Positions 10,622 to 60,586 of a stretch of 64,000 nucleotides of DNA are shown here, piece after piece (the first letter of the stretch is position 1; every line of letters starts with the position of its first letter). The stretch comes from Bacteroidales bacterium (GTDB taxonomy: Bacteria > Bacteroidota > Bacteroidia > Bacteroidales > WCHB1-69): positions 65,339 through 129,338 of the forward strand of contig JAGCGA010000007.1 of assembly GCA_017649855.1 (NCBI GenBank), in the 5' to 3' direction. The position numbers and the translations under genes were made by a program. The notes below the pieces were generated by a model. It was given only the letters and a program-made list of their open reading frames with translations, did not search any database and was not told where the DNA came from.

Positions 10622-12787
10622 ATGGAACAACAAGAACTTCTTCACCAAGAGAATTCTGAGAATCAGAATGCAGAGGTGAACTCTGGCGCTTCCGTAGAGG
10701 AAGCCACCGTCATTGCGTCAACAGAAACTCCCGCACCTGCAGAGGAAACTGAACCCACCGTTTCTGTACCGGAGGAGCCCGTAGCAGCCGTCGCTGAAGA
10801 GCCGGCGCCTGCCGAGGAACCGGCAGCTGAGGCTGAAGCTGAGGCAGCACCCGCACCCGTTGAGGAGCCTGCACCCGTTGAGGAGCCTGCAGCCGCCCCA
10901 GAGAGCGAAGAGAAGCCGGAAGCAGAAGAACCCGCGCCCGTAGAGGAGACCGTTGAGCAGGTGGAAGCCGAGTATGCCAACTTCGACCTGGAGCAATCCA
11001 TCGCAGAAGTGGAGAGACTCGTCGAAGAGCCCAACTTCAACCTCATCAAGACACGTATGGGCGTGTTGAGAACCAAGATCATTGAATTTTTCCGGGAGCG
11101 CAAGCGTGCTGCCGAGGCTGCCTACGAAGAGGCCCTCAAGTCAGCCCAAAACGCCACGGAGGAGAACCCTGAGGCAGCCACCGAGGTGGAGGCCCCCTCT
11201 TCCGAACCCGACCAATATGAAGTGCGCTTCAACAACGCATTCCAGAAATACAAAGACTCCAAGGCCAAATTCATCGCCGCTTTAGAGGCACAGAAGGTGA
11301 AGAACCTGGAGGCCAAGAACCAGATACTGGACAAACTGAAGAACCTCATCGAGACAGAGTCTCACCTGAAGACCCTGAACGACAAGTTCAAAGAGCTGCA
11401 AGAGGAGTGGAAGAACATCGGACCGGTGCCGCAAACGGAGTCAGCCACGCTCTGGCAGAACTACCACTTCTACGTGGAGAAATTCTTCGACATCCTCCGT
11501 ATCAACAAAGAGATGCGCACCTTGGATCTGAAGAAGAACATGGAGAGCAAGCTGGAGTTGTGCGAAAAGGCAGAGTCTTTGTTGTTAAACGACTCTATCA
11601 ACCAATCATTCAGAGACTTGCAAGCCTTGCACGAGCAATGGAAAGAGATCGGGCCGGTTCCCGAGGAGAAGAAAGAGGAGCTGTGGGAGCGTTTCAAAGC
11701 CGCTTCCGACCAGATCAACCAGCGCAGAAAAGACTATTACGACAAGTTGTTCGAAGAAGAGCAGAACAACTACAATGCCAAGGTTGTGCTTTGCGAGCAA
11801 GCCGAGGACATCGTTGCCAAAGGCTCCGAATCCGTCAAAGACTACAATGAGATCAGCGACAAGCTGACCGAGTTGTTGAACATGTGGAAGACCTTAGGAC
11901 CGGCTCCTGCCAAGCTCAACGACGAGATCTGGAACCGTTTCAAGTCCACCTTGGACAAGTTCTTCGGACAGAAGAAAGAGTACTTCCAGCAAATCAAGGA
12001 TTCGCAGATGCAGAACTACAACCAGAAGTTGAATCTGGCCATCCAGGCGGAGGGCATTGCCGACCGTACGGACTGGAAAGAGGCGACCAACGACATTCTG
12101 AAACTGCAAACCGAATGGAAGAGCATCGGGGCCACCCCGCGCAAATACTCCGACCAGATATGGAAGCGTTTCCGCGCCGCCTGCGACAAGTTCTTTGAGG
12201 CTAAAGCCAACTATTTCAACAACATCCAGGATGTAGAGGCTGAAAACCTGAAGAAGAAAGAGGAGCTCATCGAGAAGATCCTCAACCATGAGTTCGGCGA
12301 TGATCGAAACGCCAACATGGAAGTCATCAAACAATACCAGAACGAGTGGATCCAGATCGGCTTTGTGCCCAGAAAGGACAAAGACCGCGTTTACAGCGAG
12401 TACCGCGCCGCTTTGGACAAGCGTTTTGCCGAGTTGAAGATCAGTGCCAGCGACTTGAGAAACAACCGTTTCAGAAACAAGATTGACAACATCCTCAACG
12501 ACCCGAACGCCGACCGTATCATTGACAAGGAGAAGAACTTCCTCAAGAACAAGCTGCAGAAGCTGAAAGAAGACATCACCTTGTGGGAAAACAACTTAGG
12601 TTTCTTCTCCAACTCCAAGAATGCTGAAATCATCACGGCTGAGTTCCGCAAGAAGATCGACGCTGCCAAGGAGGAAATCAAGGATTTGGAATACAAGATC
12701 CGCATGATGAACGCCCCCAAGAAGGAGGCCACTCCCGAGGAGCCTGCCGAGGCCAGTGAAGCCGCTGCGGACACCAACGAGCAATAA
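10622..12787 (+). CDS. DUF349 repeat protein with acidic Pro/Ala/Glu-rich N-terminus
   Basis: Repeated blocks of type LHEQWKEIGPVPEEKKEELWERFKAA.D.F (at least 5 copies). N-terminal roughly 110 aa of EEPAPAEEPAA repeats. Confidence 0.8.
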   Translation: MEQQELLHQENSENQNAEVNSGASVEEATVIASTETPAPAEETEPTVSVPEEPVAAVAEEPAPAEEPAAEAEAEAAPAPVEEPAPVEEPAAAPESEEKPEAEEPAPVEETVEQVEAEYANFDLEQSIAEVERLVEEPNFNLIKTRMGVLRTKIIEFFRERKRAAEAAYEEALKSAQNATEENPEAATEVEAPSSEPDQYEVRFNNAFQKYKDSKAKFIAALEAQKVKNLEAKNQILDKLKNLIETESHLKTLNDKFKELQEEWKNIGPVPQTESATLWQNYHFYVEKFFDILRINKEMRTLDLKKNMESKLELCEKAESLLLNDSINQSFRDLQALHEQWKEIGPVPEEKKEELWERFKAASDQINQRRKDYYDKLFEEEQNNYNAKVVLCEQAEDIVAKGSESVKDYNEISDKLTELLNMWKTLGPAPAKLNDEIWNRFKSTLDKFFGQKKEYFQQIKDSQMQNYNQKLNLAIQAEGIADRTDWKEATNDILKLQTEWKSIGATPRKYSDQIWKRFRAACDKFFEAKANYFNNIQDVEAENLKKKEELIEKILNHEFGDDRNANMEVIKQYQNEWIQIGFVPRKDKDRVYSEYRAALDKRFAELKISASDLRNNRFRNKIDNILNDPNADRIIDKEKNFLKNKLQKLKEDITLWENNLGFFSNSKNAEIITAEFRKKIDAAKEEIKDLEYKIRMMNAPKKEATPEEPAEASEAAADTNEQ

Positions 12788-12791
12788 CAAT

Positions 12792-13247
12792 ATGAAACGT
12801 CACATCCTGTTTCTAGGAATACTATGCCTTACCTTTTTATCAGCGGCTGGACAGTCGGCCGCTGATAAAATCATAGGCACCTATTATATCTCGGACGACA
12901 GTTCTGATGAGGATTGCAAGATCAAGATCTACAAGACCTCCTCGGGCACTTATGAAGGTCGTATCTTCTGGGTCAAGAATCCCCTTTTCAAGGACGGCAC
13001 TCCCAAGCGCGACATCATGAACCCGAACCCAGCCAAGCGCGACACGCCAGGCGACAAGATCCAGCTGTTATTCCACTTCAAATATGACGCCAAGCAGGGC
13101 AAATGGGTGGATGGCGAGATATACGACCCGATACATGGCAAGTATTACAAGAGCAAGATGTGGTTTGAGAGCGAGAAAAAACTTCGGGTGCGCGGCTATA
13201 TCGGCGTCCCCGCTTTAGGGCGCACCATGGTCTGGGATAAACTATAG
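12792..13247 (+). CDS. DUF2147 domain protein (secreted)
   Basis: Signal peptide MKRHILFLGILCLTFLSAAGQ. IIGTYY...GRIFW...GEIYDP..GK.Y..KMW pattern. Start moved to ATG 12792. Confidence 0.7.
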   Translation: MKRHILFLGILCLTFLSAAGQSAADKIIGTYYISDDSSDEDCKIKIYKTSSGTYEGRIFWVKNPLFKDGTPKRDIMNPNPAKRDTPGDKIQLLFHFKYDAKQGKWVDGEIYDPIHGKYYKSKMWFESEKKLRVRGYIGVPALGRTMVWDKL

Positions 13248-13253
13248 TCACCG

Positions 13254-13649
13254 ATGGAAAACCTGCACATCAGAATCGACAAATGGCTATGGATGGTGCG
13301 GCTCTTCAAGACCCGCTCCCTGGCTACCGAGGCATGCAACGCCGGCAAGGTGAAATGCAACGGTGTCAACGTCAAGCCTTCCAAGGAGGTCAAGACGGAA
13401 GAGGAATACGAGGTGCACATCGGGACGCTCAACAAGCAAGTGCGGGTCCTCGGCACGCCCAAGAGCCGTGTGGGGGCAGCCCTAGTCCCGGACTATTGCG
13501 AAGACCTCACCCCACAGGAGGAGTATGACCGCATGAAGACCCTCCACACCTATGAATATCGGCCGCACGGACTGGGACGCCCCACCAAACGCGACCGCCG
13601 ACAGCTGGAATACATCAAGTCGATGATGGGAGACGGGGAGGAGTTTTGA
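13254..13649 (+). CDS. hslR: S4-domain RNA-binding protein (Hsp15/HslR-like)
   Basis: N-terminal RIDKWLWMVRLFKTRSLATEACNAGKVKCNG is an S4 motif. Confidence 0.7.
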   Translation: MENLHIRIDKWLWMVRLFKTRSLATEACNAGKVKCNGVNVKPSKEVKTEEEYEVHIGTLNKQVRVLGTPKSRVGAALVPDYCEDLTPQEEYDRMKTLHTYEYRPHGLGRPTKRDRRQLEYIKSMMGDGEEF

Positions 13650-13736
13650 CCTTGAACTTTGACCTTGAACTTTGACTTTGAACTTTGACTTTGAACTTTG
13701 ACCTTGAACTTTGACTTTGGCCTTTAGCATTTTGGT
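13645..13736. repeat. A-type array: six 13-mers TTTGACYTTGAAC plus TTTAGCA TTTTGGT tail
   Basis: Units at 13645, 13658, 13671, 13684, 13697, 13710. Read directly. Confidence 0.9.
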
Positions 13737-13760
13737 AAAACAACGATAAACATCATAATT

Positions 13761-14681
13761 ATGACAAAAGAGGATTTAGTGAATGAAATCAAGCGTTTGC
13801 GTGAAGAAAAGAACGCGATCATTTTAGCGCATTACTACACCCTGCCCGAGGTACAGGAGATTGCCGATTTCGTAGGCGACAGTCTGGCCCTTGCCAGGAA
13901 GGCCGCCAGCACCGATGCCAGCATCATCCTGTTTGCCGGCGTGCACTTCATGGCGGAGACCGCCAAGATCCTGAATCCGGACAAGAAGGTGCTGGTGCCC
14001 GACATGAGCGCCGGCTGCTGTCTTGCCGACAGCTGTCTCGCCGCCGACCTGGCCCGTTTCAAAGAGGAGCATCCAGACTATCTCGTCCTGTCGTATGTCA
14101 ACTGCACTGCGGCAGTCAAGGCACTCTCCGACCTGATTGTCACCTCCGGCAACGCCCTGAAGCTCGTCAACACTCTGCCCAAAGATGCCAAGATACTCTT
14201 CACCCCCGACCAGAACTTAGGTGACTACATCAACCGTCAGACGGGTCGGCAGATGTTGCTGTGGGACGGCATGTGCCGCATCCACGACCACTACACCCTT
14301 GAGGATTTGGCCTTGCTGAGAGAGTCCTACCCCGGCGTAAAGGTAGTGGCCCATCCGGAATGCCGCCGCGAGTTTCTGGCACAAGTCGACTTTGTAGGCT
14401 CCACCGCCGCCATGATCAACTACATCTCCGAGAGTCCTGACCAGGAGTTCATCGTGGCCACGGAAAGCGGCATCCTCCATGAACTGAAGAAACGCAACCC
14501 GGGCAAGACCTTCCACACGCTCTACAACGGCGACCTGGCCCACGACTGCGGAAGCATGAAGAAGAACAACCTGGAGAATATCTACAAGGCGCTGCTCAAC
14601 GAAGATCCGGAGCTGACAATGGATCCGGAGCTGATGGCAAAATCCTTGGCTCCGATACAAAAGATGCTGGAGTTATCGTAG
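13761..14681 (+). CDS. nadA: quinolinate synthase
   Basis: ILAHYY, VHFMAETAKILNP, VVAHPEC. 306 aa. Confidence 0.9.
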   Translation: MTKEDLVNEIKRLREEKNAIILAHYYTLPEVQEIADFVGDSLALARKAASTDASIILFAGVHFMAETAKILNPDKKVLVPDMSAGCCLADSCLAADLARFKEEHPDYLVLSYVNCTAAVKALSDLIVTSGNALKLVNTLPKDAKILFTPDQNLGDYINRQTGRQMLLWDGMCRIHDHYTLEDLALLRESYPGVKVVAHPECRREFLAQVDFVGSTAAMINYISESPDQEFIVATESGILHELKKRNPGKTFHTLYNGDLAHDCGSMKKNNLENIYKALLNEDPELTMDPELMAKSLAPIQKMLELS

Positions 14682-14737
14682 GCCATTGGCTGTTAGCTGT
14701 TAGCCATTGGCTATTAGCCTTTGGCTGTTGGCCTCAG
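14682..14737. repeat. B-type array: eight heptads GCYRTTR
   Basis: GCCATTG GCTGTTA GCTGTTA GCCATTG GCTATTA GCCTTTG GCTGTTG GCCTCAG. Confidence 0.9.
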
Positions 14738-15652
14738 GTATTCCAAGGAAAGGGCAAAGAAGGGGTTGAAGTCGTTGATTCTGAGCAGTGTTTTCAACTC
14801 AGAAGCCTCTATTCCTGCAAAGGAGGCATAATAGTGCCATAGCTCCTTCAAGATGAAGAGGGTGCTTTTTTCTTTGCGGGTTTCCAGCAGTTCATCGGCA
14901 TAGCGCTGATAATAGCGCAAAAATCTCTCTTGCTTGTCGCAACTGTTCATCCCTTTCATTTCTTCTGCCAAAAAAGGATTGCAGAGGATCGGGCGTCCCA
15001 GCATCCAGTCCTGGACCTCCGGGAACCGCGCCTGGAGCTGGCGGTACGTTTCCACGGTCCACACGTCACCACTGTAGATGACGCGATGGGTAGTATGTCG
15101 AAGGCAATCGGCAAAAGCTTCCAAGTCGGGGACGCCATCGTAGAGCTGCTCACCTAAACGGGGATGGATCACGATGTATTCGAGTGGATAGTGTTGCATC
15201 CGCTCCAAGATGGCGAGGCTCTCGGACTTGTCATGCAGTCCCAGCCTCATCTTCAAAGAGAACTGGAAGGGGGTCTGTTCGGTGACAGCCCGGACGACTG
15301 CCTCCACGATTTCGGGATGGGGCATCACGCCGCAGCCGCGCGTGCGTCGTACCACCTGCGCCACGGGACAGCCGATATTCCAATTGAAGGAGGTATAGCC
15401 ATATTCATCGTGCAGCTCCCGCATCGTGTCCACAAAATGGGCCGGGTTGTTGCCCATCAGCTGCGGGGTCATCGGCCGACAGGCATTGTTCTGCGGCCAC
15501 AGATCCTTCCACTTCTTCACGTTGAGCTTGGCATGCTCCTGCACGGGCAAGAAAGGGGCAATAAAATTGTCTATGCCACCGACATGGCGACATAGACAAT
15601 TTCTGAATTGATAGTTCGTAATCCCGTCCAGGGGCGCTAACCAGACAAGCAT
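14714..15652 (-). CDS. tRNA-dihydrouridine synthase family protein
   Basis: LAPLDGITNYQFRN N-terminus and TIM-barrel Dus-like layout. The last ~7 codons lie inside the heptad repeat 14682-14737. Confidence 0.6.
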   Translation of the reverse strand: MLVWLAPLDGITNYQFRNCLCRHVGGIDNFIAPFLPVQEHAKLNVKKWKDLWPQNNACRPMTPQLMGNNPAHFVDTMRELHDEYGYTSFNWNIGCPVAQVVRRTRGCGVMPHPEIVEAVVRAVTEQTPFQFSLKMRLGLHDKSESLAILERMQHYPLEYIVIHPRLGEQLYDGVPDLEAFADCLRHTTHRVIYSGDVWTVETYRQLQARFPEVQDWMLGRPILCNPFLAEEMKGMNSCDKQERFLRYYQRYADELLETRKEKSTLFILKELWHYYASFAGIEASELKTLLRINDFNPFFALSLEYLRPTAKG

Positions 15653-44520: not shown

Positions 44521-44622
44521 GCTGTTGGCTGTTGGCCATTAGCTATTAGCCATTGGCGGGTAGGGTGACTTTGACTTTGAACTTTGACTTTGAACTTTGG
44601 ACTTCTAACTGATAACTGATCA
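44521..44622. repeat. composite B-A-C element
   Basis: Six B heptads (44521-44562), A run TTTGAC/TTTGAAC (44566-44601), three C heptads (44602-44622). Confidence 0.9.
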
Positions 44623-46152
44623 CTTTTTGAAGGGCAGCGAAATCATGAAGGTACTCCCCTTCCCCTCGATGCTCTGCACCTCGATCTTGCCTTTGTGCAG
44701 GTTCACAATCTTCTTCACATAGCCCAGACCCAGGCCGTAGCCCTTCACATTGTGCACGTTGCCACTGGGCACCCGGTAGAAGTTGTTGAAGATCTCACCC
44801 AGCGACTTCTTCGGAATCCCGATGCCCTTGTCGGTGACAGAGAGCATGAAATATTTGTCGTTGGAGAGGGTGTTGATGAGGATCTCCGGCTCGTGTTCCG
44901 AATACTTGATGGCATTTTCCACGAGGTTAACCAGCACATTAGTTAAATGCTCTTTGTCTCCGAATATCTTATAGTTATCTGCATTGAGCGCCAGATTGAG
45001 AGAGCCATTATTGCTGTTCACCAGCAGGGCCACACTGTCCACCACTTTCCGGATCAACTCGTGCATATCCAGCAGCTCAACGTTCATCTTGACCTGTCCT
45101 TTTTTGAGCTGCGCAATTTGCAGGATGTTGGTCACCATGGAACGAAGCCGCTCGTTCTCATCATGGATGATGTTGACGTATGCGGTCTGCATGTCGGGAT
45201 CCGACATGGTCACGTTGTCGCCCAGCGCCTCGCAGGCCAGCGAGATGGTGGAAATGGGCGTCTTGAACTCATGGGTCATGTTGTCCACAAACTCATTGGT
45301 CACCTCCGACACTTTTTTCTGGCGATAGAGGGAGATCAGGGAGACCAAGGAGATGGCAGAGACCAGGAAGAGCAGGAAGAGAATCATGATCACGATGGTG
45401 CTCATCCTTTGGAGGAAGATTCCGCGCTCACCGGGGAAATAGAGGATGATATAGTGGGGAGAGCTCACCTTCTCATTGTATTTCAGGCGGAACACATAAT
45501 CGCTCTGGAGCATCTTCTCGCGCGGCATATAGGCCGGCTCCACCACAAACTCAGTGGTGAATGCATTGTAGAGGGCGAAGTCGAAGCGGGCTTCGATGGT
45601 CTCCTCATGGAGGGCCTCCTCCAACAGGTTGCGCAGGAGACTGGGTGACAGCAGCAGCTTCGTCGTGCTGTCGAGCTGCACCATGTTGACATCCACATTC
45701 TCGAGGAAGCTGTTGGGAATCTCCTCCTGGTTCTTGGGCGACCATGGGTCTTTGTACAATGGGAAGAGTGTCCGGAAGGAGTCGCTGAAGTAGGTGGTGT
45801 CGCTGGAAACGACGCGCGCATTGTCTTCTTTCAGGTAGATCTCCGTCATAATCACCCCTATAGGCTGATTCTTCGCACTGTCTATCAAAAATTTACGAAT
45901 ATTCTGCACCGAGACCACATCCGAGGTGTCCATCGTTCCCGTCAAGGTAGTGTCGGCCAGGGGAAGCGTGTCGTTCTTCAAGATGGCATCGATCTGGTCC
46001 ACCACGGTGTTGCCAGCGGAGAGCACCTCATTGACGAAGATGCTGCGCTGCACCTTCTCCGCCTCCGTGTAGAGCTTGAAGATGGAGAGCATCAGAAAGA
46101 AGGTGGTGACAATCACCACTAAAAACAGCGAAACTAATATTCTCTTTTTCAT
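44620..46152 (-). CDS. sensor histidine kinase
   Basis: H-box MTHEFKTPISTI, N-box LVNLVENAIKYS, G-boxes DKGIGI and GYGLGL. Two TM segments. Confidence 0.85.
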   Translation of the reverse strand: MKKRILVSLFLVVIVTTFFLMLSIFKLYTEAEKVQRSIFVNEVLSAGNTVVDQIDAILKNDTLPLADTTLTGTMDTSDVVSVQNIRKFLIDSAKNQPIGVIMTEIYLKEDNARVVSSDTTYFSDSFRTLFPLYKDPWSPKNQEEIPNSFLENVDVNMVQLDSTTKLLLSPSLLRNLLEEALHEETIEARFDFALYNAFTTEFVVEPAYMPREKMLQSDYVFRLKYNEKVSSPHYIILYFPGERGIFLQRMSTIVIMILFLLFLVSAISLVSLISLYRQKKVSEVTNEFVDNMTHEFKTPISTISLACEALGDNVTMSDPDMQTAYVNIIHDENERLRSMVTNILQIAQLKKGQVKMNVELLDMHELIRKVVDSVALLVNSNNGSLNLALNADNYKIFGDKEHLTNVLVNLVENAIKYSEHEPEILINTLSNDKYFMLSVTDKGIGIPKKSLGEIFNNFYRVPSGNVHNVKGYGLGLGYVKKIVNLHKGKIEVQSIEGKGSTFMISLPFKK

Positions 46153-60442: not shown

Positions 60443-60586
60443 TTGTCAGTTGTCAATTATCAGTTGTCAGTTTTAGTCAATGTTCAAAGTCAAAGTCAAT
60501 GTTCAAAGTTCAAAGTTTCCGGTTTCAAGATGAAATAGCTAATAGCCAATGGCTAACAGCTAACAGCCAATGGCCAACAGCCAAAC
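60443..60586. repeat. composite element in inverted orientation (C'-A'-B')
   Basis: TTGTCAG TTGTCAA TTATCAG TTGTCAG (60443-60470). GTCAATGTTCAAAGTCAAAGTCAATGTTCAAAGTTCAAAG (60476-60515). Seven heptads GCTAATA..GCCAAAC (60538-60586). Confidence 0.9.

Follow-up and report, generated by a model that had tools for sequence, protein, structure and literature searches.

Tandem direct repeats of the TAACTGA type, which are short, mostly intergenic, represented by several flavours per gap and present in some Bacteroidetes, provide the nearest published parallel to the array considered here (MacGregor 2015, Front Microbiol 6:1397, PMC4679880). In that study, forward heptamer repeats stop all three reading frames, 13 sets overlap the stop codon of the preceding gene, and repeats can be absent from the same gap in close relatives. 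Heptamer repeats that overlap stops and close all frames have therefore already been described (PMC4679880). According to the account that PMC4679880 gives of Mrazek, Guo and Shah 2007, heptamers are the commonest class of long simple-sequence repeat; tandem repeats with units of 5-11 nt, among which period 7 predominates, occur there in excess over chance, units whose length is not divisible by three are excluded from coding sequence, and polymerase slippage is proposed as the source. Moxon-type phase-variable contingency loci of host-adapted pathogens, as summarized in PMC4679880, also change copy number from strain to strain beside a gene, with repeats that lie inside an ORF or between promoter hexamers and that bring about on/off switching.

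The array that we describe lies between an hslR-like gene and nadA in a window of 64,000 nt (positions 65,339 to 129,338 of contig JAGCGA010000007.1) from a rumen Bacteroidales genus that is uncultured and harbours dozens of coexisting repeat flavours. It is tandem beyond chance, intergenic, variable in copy number and able to stop all frames on its forward strand, and thus has the properties of the heptamer class in the broad sense. It is also absent from the same gap in close relatives and overlaps the stop codon of the upstream gene. However, it does not belong to the TAACTGA family in the strict sense, because its unit, TTTGACYTTGAAC, is a 13-nt compound of TTTGACY and TTGAAC. Nor is it a phase-variable contingency locus, since the array is situated past the stop and outside the ORF, has no flanking promoter box, and leaves both ORFs intact in all alleles. 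The cyanobacterial STRR heptamers, which are intergenic heptanucleotide tandem repeat families with few recurrent units and no known function, are alike in these respects; they occur in a different phylum and have different unit sequences. The position of the array differs from that reported by MacGregor, in that the array adjoins a stop codon whereas the published sets lie a few nucleotides upstream of a start (PMC4679880). Similarly, the phylum is not among the repeat-rich genomes that PMC4679880 names from the work of Mrazek and colleagues, and the portion of that work presented there does not describe a 7+6 higher-order unit or a strand polarity that depends on position.

The array occupies the only large gap in a co-directional string consisting of DUF349 (10622-12787), DUF2147 (12792-13247), hslR (13254-13649) and nadA (13761-14681), where successive gaps measure 4, 6 and 111 nt. 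The hslR-like ORF, on the plus strand like the other features described below, encodes a 131-aa S4/Hsp15 RNA-binding protein that ends in ...GDGEEF-TGA; an identical product matches the Pfam families S4 and, faintly, HSP15_C, and its homologues are named Hsp15 in their sources. From 13645 to 13719, TRF reports a period of 13 with units TTTGACCTTGAAC/TTTGACTTTGAAC, 5.8 copies, 95% matches and a score of 129, or alternatively a 39-nt higher-order unit present 1.9 times (score 143). The units follow one another as TTTGACCTTGAAC, TTTGACCTTGAAC, TTTGACTTTGAAC, TTTGACTTTGAAC, TTTGACCTTGAAC and TTTGACTTTG, and this A-type repeat can also be written (UUUGACUUUGAAC)n. Such an array is real and far beyond chance. 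Outside it, positions 13720-13736 carry degenerate B-like heptads, GCCTTTA GCATTTT GGT (GCCTTTAGCATTTTGGT), an old spacer also found in alleles that have no array. An A-rich leader, AAAACAACGATAAACATCATAATT (13737-13760), conserved in all alleles and in a related genome (G001), then runs directly into the ATG of nadA, which encodes a 306-aa quinolinate synthase A (Pfam NadA); an excess of A over T within 20 nt of starts is the norm in this genome. Downstream, eight B-type heptads (GCYNTTR, 14682-14737; TRF), likewise variable in copy number, separate nadA from the convergent dus gene. No intrinsic terminator (a G+C-rich hairpin followed by a T run) occurs in 13400-13900, no Rfam family, including the NAD+ riboswitch (nadA motif), was matched by cmscan on either strand of 13200-14800 at E <= 1, and the array folds no better than its shuffles (z = +1.0 as RNA, -0.5 as DNA). 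If transcribed, it would be unstructured and U-rich. The spacer is probably transcribed, and the sequence suggests that hslR and nadA are co-transcribed.

The initial annotation had placed the hslR stop inside the first TTTGACC unit, and indeed the ORF ends at 13649 and its TGA (13647-13649) forms part of the first TTTGAC. Plus-strand TGA triplets had also been listed in all three frames, and these are present at the listed places and beyond: 11 occur in total, at 13647, 13653, 13660, 13666, 13673, 13679, 13686, 13692, 13699, 13705 and 13712, in frames 0, 0, 1, 1, 2, 2, 0, 0, 1, 1 and 2, so that an in-frame back-up TGA lies two codons past the hslR stop. This distribution is not a further coincidence, because the period is 13 (13 mod 3 = 1) and each half unit carries a TGA. 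More generally, a stop triplet in the unit of a tandem repeat will close all frames within three units whenever the period is not divisible by three. No stop was found on the minus strand of 13645-13719, and this explains, as had been proposed, why the artefactual ORFs 13482-13730 and 13615-13743 (KVKVQGQSS...) traverse the array on that strand. However, the distance from the end of the array to the nadA ATG, given there as 25 nt, is 41 nt, since the regular 13-mer units run only to 13719.

Comparison with other strains reveals an allelic series at this gap. The window and three further contigs (L021-L023), with flanks that are 99.9-100% identical, have five added 13-mer units; one contig with 98.3% identical flanks (L035) has three, two with 99% identical flanks (L036, L037) have two, and ten contigs that encode a 99%-identical HslR, with flanks of 92-96%, have none. 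In all of these the hslR stop is TGA. A more distant genome, G001, whose flanks are 83% identical to the window, has a TAA stop followed by CTTTGGCCTTTAGCC... (B-like heptads) and no A unit, and A units are also missing from G015 and G019, which are more distant, at about 79-86%, and have gaps of 56 nt and 21 nt, respectively. Hence, the array has been gained, lost and resized within one species, nadA stays intact at any copy number, and the TGA stop as well as the ...EEF C-terminus is present where the array is missing. Alleles with 0, 2, 3 and 5 units that share the HslR C-terminus and TGA indicate that the array is needed neither for the hslR stop nor for nadA expression. The contig with three units carries an identical T>G variant in units 1 and 3, as would be left by a block duplication. 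When near-identical strains were retrieved through exact matches to the HslR and FolD proteins, their arrays were identical, and the variation surfaced only through members of the 99%-identical HslR cluster; since near-identical strains share a copy number, the array is not hypermutable over very short time scales. A metagenome pattern scan with the 3' end of hslR gave no matches. It is unlikely that the copy numbers are assembly artefacts, because both the reads and the k of 141 used for several contigs exceed the 75 nt of the array. One Logan contig assembled at k = 31 (L024) ends 27 nt into the array, corresponding to window positions 13645-13671, and is the only such break. Arrays of this kind break short-k-mer assemblies, and they can serve as strain-level markers for an uncultured rumen species.

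We consider it most likely, with a probability of roughly 0.7, that the array is a tandem repeat of the heptamer class, variable in copy number, which grew by slippage from a seed at the hslR stop, and that it has no dedicated role as a stop block or promoter. The allele without added units already ends in ...EEF-TGA and reads TTT-TGA-CTTTGGCC (with its flanks, GAGTTT-TGA-CTTTGGCCTTTAGCAATTTGG...), where the stretch TTTGACTTTGGC matches the A unit at 10 of 12 positions; the seed of the array therefore already included the stop codon. A short A-like word at the end of hslR (TTT-TGA-C-TTTGG) would have been that seed, and the array would have expanded from it as replication slipped, perhaps with the aid of sequence copied from another A array. 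Because the seed word spanned the end of the gene, the first unit would contain the stop codon, and because changes in the coding sequence are selected against, growth would have proceeded only away from the gene. The result would sit in the probably transcribed spacer of the DUF349-DUF2147-hslR-nadA string, which offers no hairpin, promoter box or known RNA motif, and its TGAs in three frames would be an arithmetic product of the 13-nt period and not a selected device. Any effect on nadA would be at most modulatory. Purely local slippage is nevertheless an incomplete account, because the first full unit (CCTTGAAC...) cannot be made by duplicating the sequence of the array-free allele, so that selection of particular words or ectopic copying is also needed. 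A small set of unit flavours turns up again and again, at many loci and in different species, and it is possible that microhomology allowed copying from another A array. The series thus illustrates how an eye-catching design, with a stop in the first unit and stops in every frame, can arise from slippage combined with the definition of an ORF.

The array belongs to a family that is spread over the whole genome. In the 2.36-Mb assembly (43 contigs, 51% G+C), the commonest TRF period is 7 (301 rows), with recurrent flavours that include AAAGTTC (A type), AATGGCT/AATAGCT/AACAGCC (B type) and ACTGATC/AACTGAT. According to a home-made codon-usage gene caller (1848 genes, 87% coding), 251 of the 342 merged heptad-type regions are mostly intergenic, versus 13% non-coding DNA in the genome, and the majority of the regions that it scores as coding are weak protein repeats of period 6/21. 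A-type arrays number 20 in this genome, and BLAST reveals many more in other species of the genus. The window itself has pure 7-nt A arrays (ACTTTGA) at 44566-44604 and 60477-60517, as well as a TAACTGA repeat at 44606-44624. In 27, 31 and 18 genes, the 7-mer centred on the stop is found again at offsets of +7, +14 and +21, respectively, versus 2-9 at other offsets, which implies that stop-embedded arrays are routine here, and about 49 heptad arrays in the whole genome adjoin or overlap a stop codon. Repeat arrays thus set many of the C-termini annotated in this genome, and for annotation this means that heptad arrays create spurious stop-free ORFs and set or shift the ends of these 49 or so genes. 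A second A array, at C9:32079-32109, begins in a TGA stop in the same register as the one at hslR: the last two codons of folD (GAA CTT) and the stop belong to its first unit, and murG starts 19 nt past it. No difference in copy number was seen at this array among strains with identical FolD. Some gaps are patchworks that run, in the sense direction, from B-type (GCYNTTR) through A-type (TTTGAAC) to C/A-rich TAACC- or TAACTGA-type repeats and then ATG, as at C31:37882 and C31:5369 in this genome, at L049 and L075, and at 44521-44622 and 60443-60586 in the window; in most of these gaps, no TAnnTTTG box separates the arrays from the start. Heptad arrays as a whole are polar: G/T-rich ones predominate by 38:16 where a stop lies within 15 nt, and C/A-rich ones by 31:12 where a start lies within 40 nt.

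The initial annotation suggested that the array might act as an all-frame translational stop block. Such a block would halt ribosomes that fail to stop, or that shift frame, at the end of hslR. The TGAs in every frame and the back-up TGA are what such a device would offer, eight of 67 A arrays contain the upstream stop, and 49 heptad arrays in this genome touch a stop. However, among 212 intergenic arrays of at least 28 nt, 159 (75%) close three frames on at least one strand by arithmetic alone, and 82 do so on both strands. Moreover, the stop-richer strand is the sense strand in 18 arrays and the antisense strand in 3 when the array abuts or overlaps a stop, but this excess is gone once arrays do not touch it (5:9 at 1-15 nt past the stop, 11:12 at 16-60 nt and 16:21 over 1-60 nt). 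An excess limited to stop-touching arrays is predicted by the definition of an ORF alone, since an ORF ends at its first stop, and is not predicted by a selected barrier. Alleles without added units keep the same TGA, with an in-frame TAA eight codons later, and stop-free antisense A arrays can directly follow stops (at a distance of 0 in L051 and of 20 nt at C10:17627). Stop-free arrays fused to the 3' ends of ORFs, which might have biased the orientation counts, were not found in the genome. We therefore regard selection for a stop block as extremely improbable. A second suggestion was that the TTTG of the array serves nadA as a sigma-contacting or UP-like promoter element; on such a reading, copy number would set promoter strength or phase. 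TTTG is the -33 word of Bacteroidota and the core of their -7 box, and in Bacteroides promoters it occurs 19-21 nt upstream of the -7 box. A sharp peak of TAnnTTTG 20-39 nt upstream of starts (175 + 98 = 273 sense versus 27 antisense, or about 14 per bin) establishes that this organism uses the Bacteroidota -7 box, and the 20 nt before starts are A-rich genome-wide (A 0.32-0.35); Bacteroidota-type promoters and leaders are thus confirmed in this uncultured lineage. The last TTTG of the spacer (13731-13734) ends 26 nt before the ATG, which is within the modal window for -7 boxes in the genome, and in a few relatives (L065, L077, L081) an A array lies just upstream of a perfect TATCTTTG box. Against this, the hslR-nadA gap contains no TAnnTTTG, its best word being only GCATTTTG at 13727-13734 (likewise ending 26 nt before the ATG), and no TTTG is found 19-21 nt from that word, as the TTTGs of the array end 7, 13 and 26 nt before 13727 and the word at 20 nt is CTTG. 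The gaps of G019 and G015 (21 nt and 56 nt) hold no TTTG at all, from which it would follow that nadA is probably transcribed from upstream. Genome-wide, arrays are not tied to promoter boxes: co-directional gaps of 100-150 nt in total have a box at a frequency of 0.14 when they bear an array and of 0.40 when they do not, whereas at less than 60 nt of non-array DNA the frequencies are the same (0.05 versus 0.06). The hslR-nadA gap, with 36-48 nt of non-array DNA, falls in this class that almost never has a promoter box. A arrays are also rare in divergent gaps (6/67). A promoter function is thus very unlikely. A sigma-70-type candidate, TTGGTA-16-CATAAT at 13732-13759, was rejected because its -10 element would end 2 nt before the ATG and because the genome uses TAnnTTTG.

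Another alternative places the function in RNA. If U-rich repeats in the spacer were bound by an S1-, cold-shock- or CsrA-like protein, then copy number could tune the stability or translation of the downstream message in a lineage that lacks Shine-Dalgarno sites. A comparable role has been proposed for the TAACTGA repeats (MacGregor 2015, PMC4679880), and initiation in Bacteroidia depends on unstructured, A-rich leaders, with A residues upstream of the start, rather than on SD pairing (PMC6847099). The relevant count covers 60 A-array loci from relatives together with the A arrays of this genome, called with the same gene model, one per co-directional gap, and drawn from a sample that includes some orthologous loci and was chosen by BLAST score with a home-made gene caller. 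Across the genus, the TTTGA strand is sense in 36 cases and antisense in 11 (p = 3.5e-4), or 28:11 (p = 0.009) when arrays that contain a stop are left out. The orientation test proposed in the initial annotation is therefore satisfied in part: a sense bias exists across the genus and some arrays contain the upstream stop, but this genome by itself is unclear at 8:6, and the bias comes mainly from relatives (28:5). Sense A arrays tend to be nearer the stop and antisense ones nearer the next start, which agrees with the polarity of all heptad arrays and with the order of the patchwork gaps. Two simpler causes of the bias were considered and rejected. Replication strand does not account for it, since the T-rich array strand coincides with the G-rich strand in 45 cases and with the opposite strand in 49, and only 46% of genes run in the direction of the G-rich strand; nor does a general excess of T behind stops, because array-free gaps show T-A of about -0.01 there. 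An RNA-level role is also favored by the polarity of heptad arrays in general, by the recurrent patchwork order, by the unstructured character of the array, and by the finding that 30% of array-bearing co-directional gaps have less than 60 nt of non-array DNA and almost no boxes and so look operon-internal. Nevertheless, alleles without any unit are common in the species, orientation in this genome is nearly balanced, and unit sequences differ between species. We judge such a role to be unlikely, and it is the recurrence of words together with the sense bias that keeps alive, at long odds, a function of the kind MacGregor proposed. In a bolder version, which we find quite unlikely, A, B and TAACC-type arrays would form a polar code in transcribed spacers of an SD-less lineage, to be read by a dedicated RNA-binding protein, with slippage in copy number serving as a heritable rheostat for whichever cistron follows, in this case nadA. 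This code would have U/G-rich repeats following stops and A/C-rich repeats, free of starts and stops, preceding starts. The reading that we prefer is still that of a slippage-grown repeat seeded at the hslR stop.

Several other short repeats in this neighborhood also differ among strains. Immediately before the array, a GAG triplet repeat at 13630-13644 (hslR codons GDGEEF) slips in frame, giving HslR C-termini that read ...GDGEEF, ...GDGEEEF or ...GDEEEEF, and the last hslR codons are thus a small coding microsatellite. In the stretch that matches 13720-13736, a 14-nt duplication of two heptads (GCCTTTAGCAATTG) is polymorphic among strains without the A array, the contrast being between L029, L031, L032 and L034 on one side and L025-L028 on the other, and the gap measures 48 or 62 nt. 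Downstream of nadA, the B array (14682-14737) has 8, 6 or 5 heptads in conspecific strains, with 8 in the window and in the strain that has three A units (L035). In G001, the gap between nadA and dus is occupied by a longer patchwork, in which at least nine B heptads are followed by CCTTGAAC and then by CTATTAT and AACTCTT repeats.
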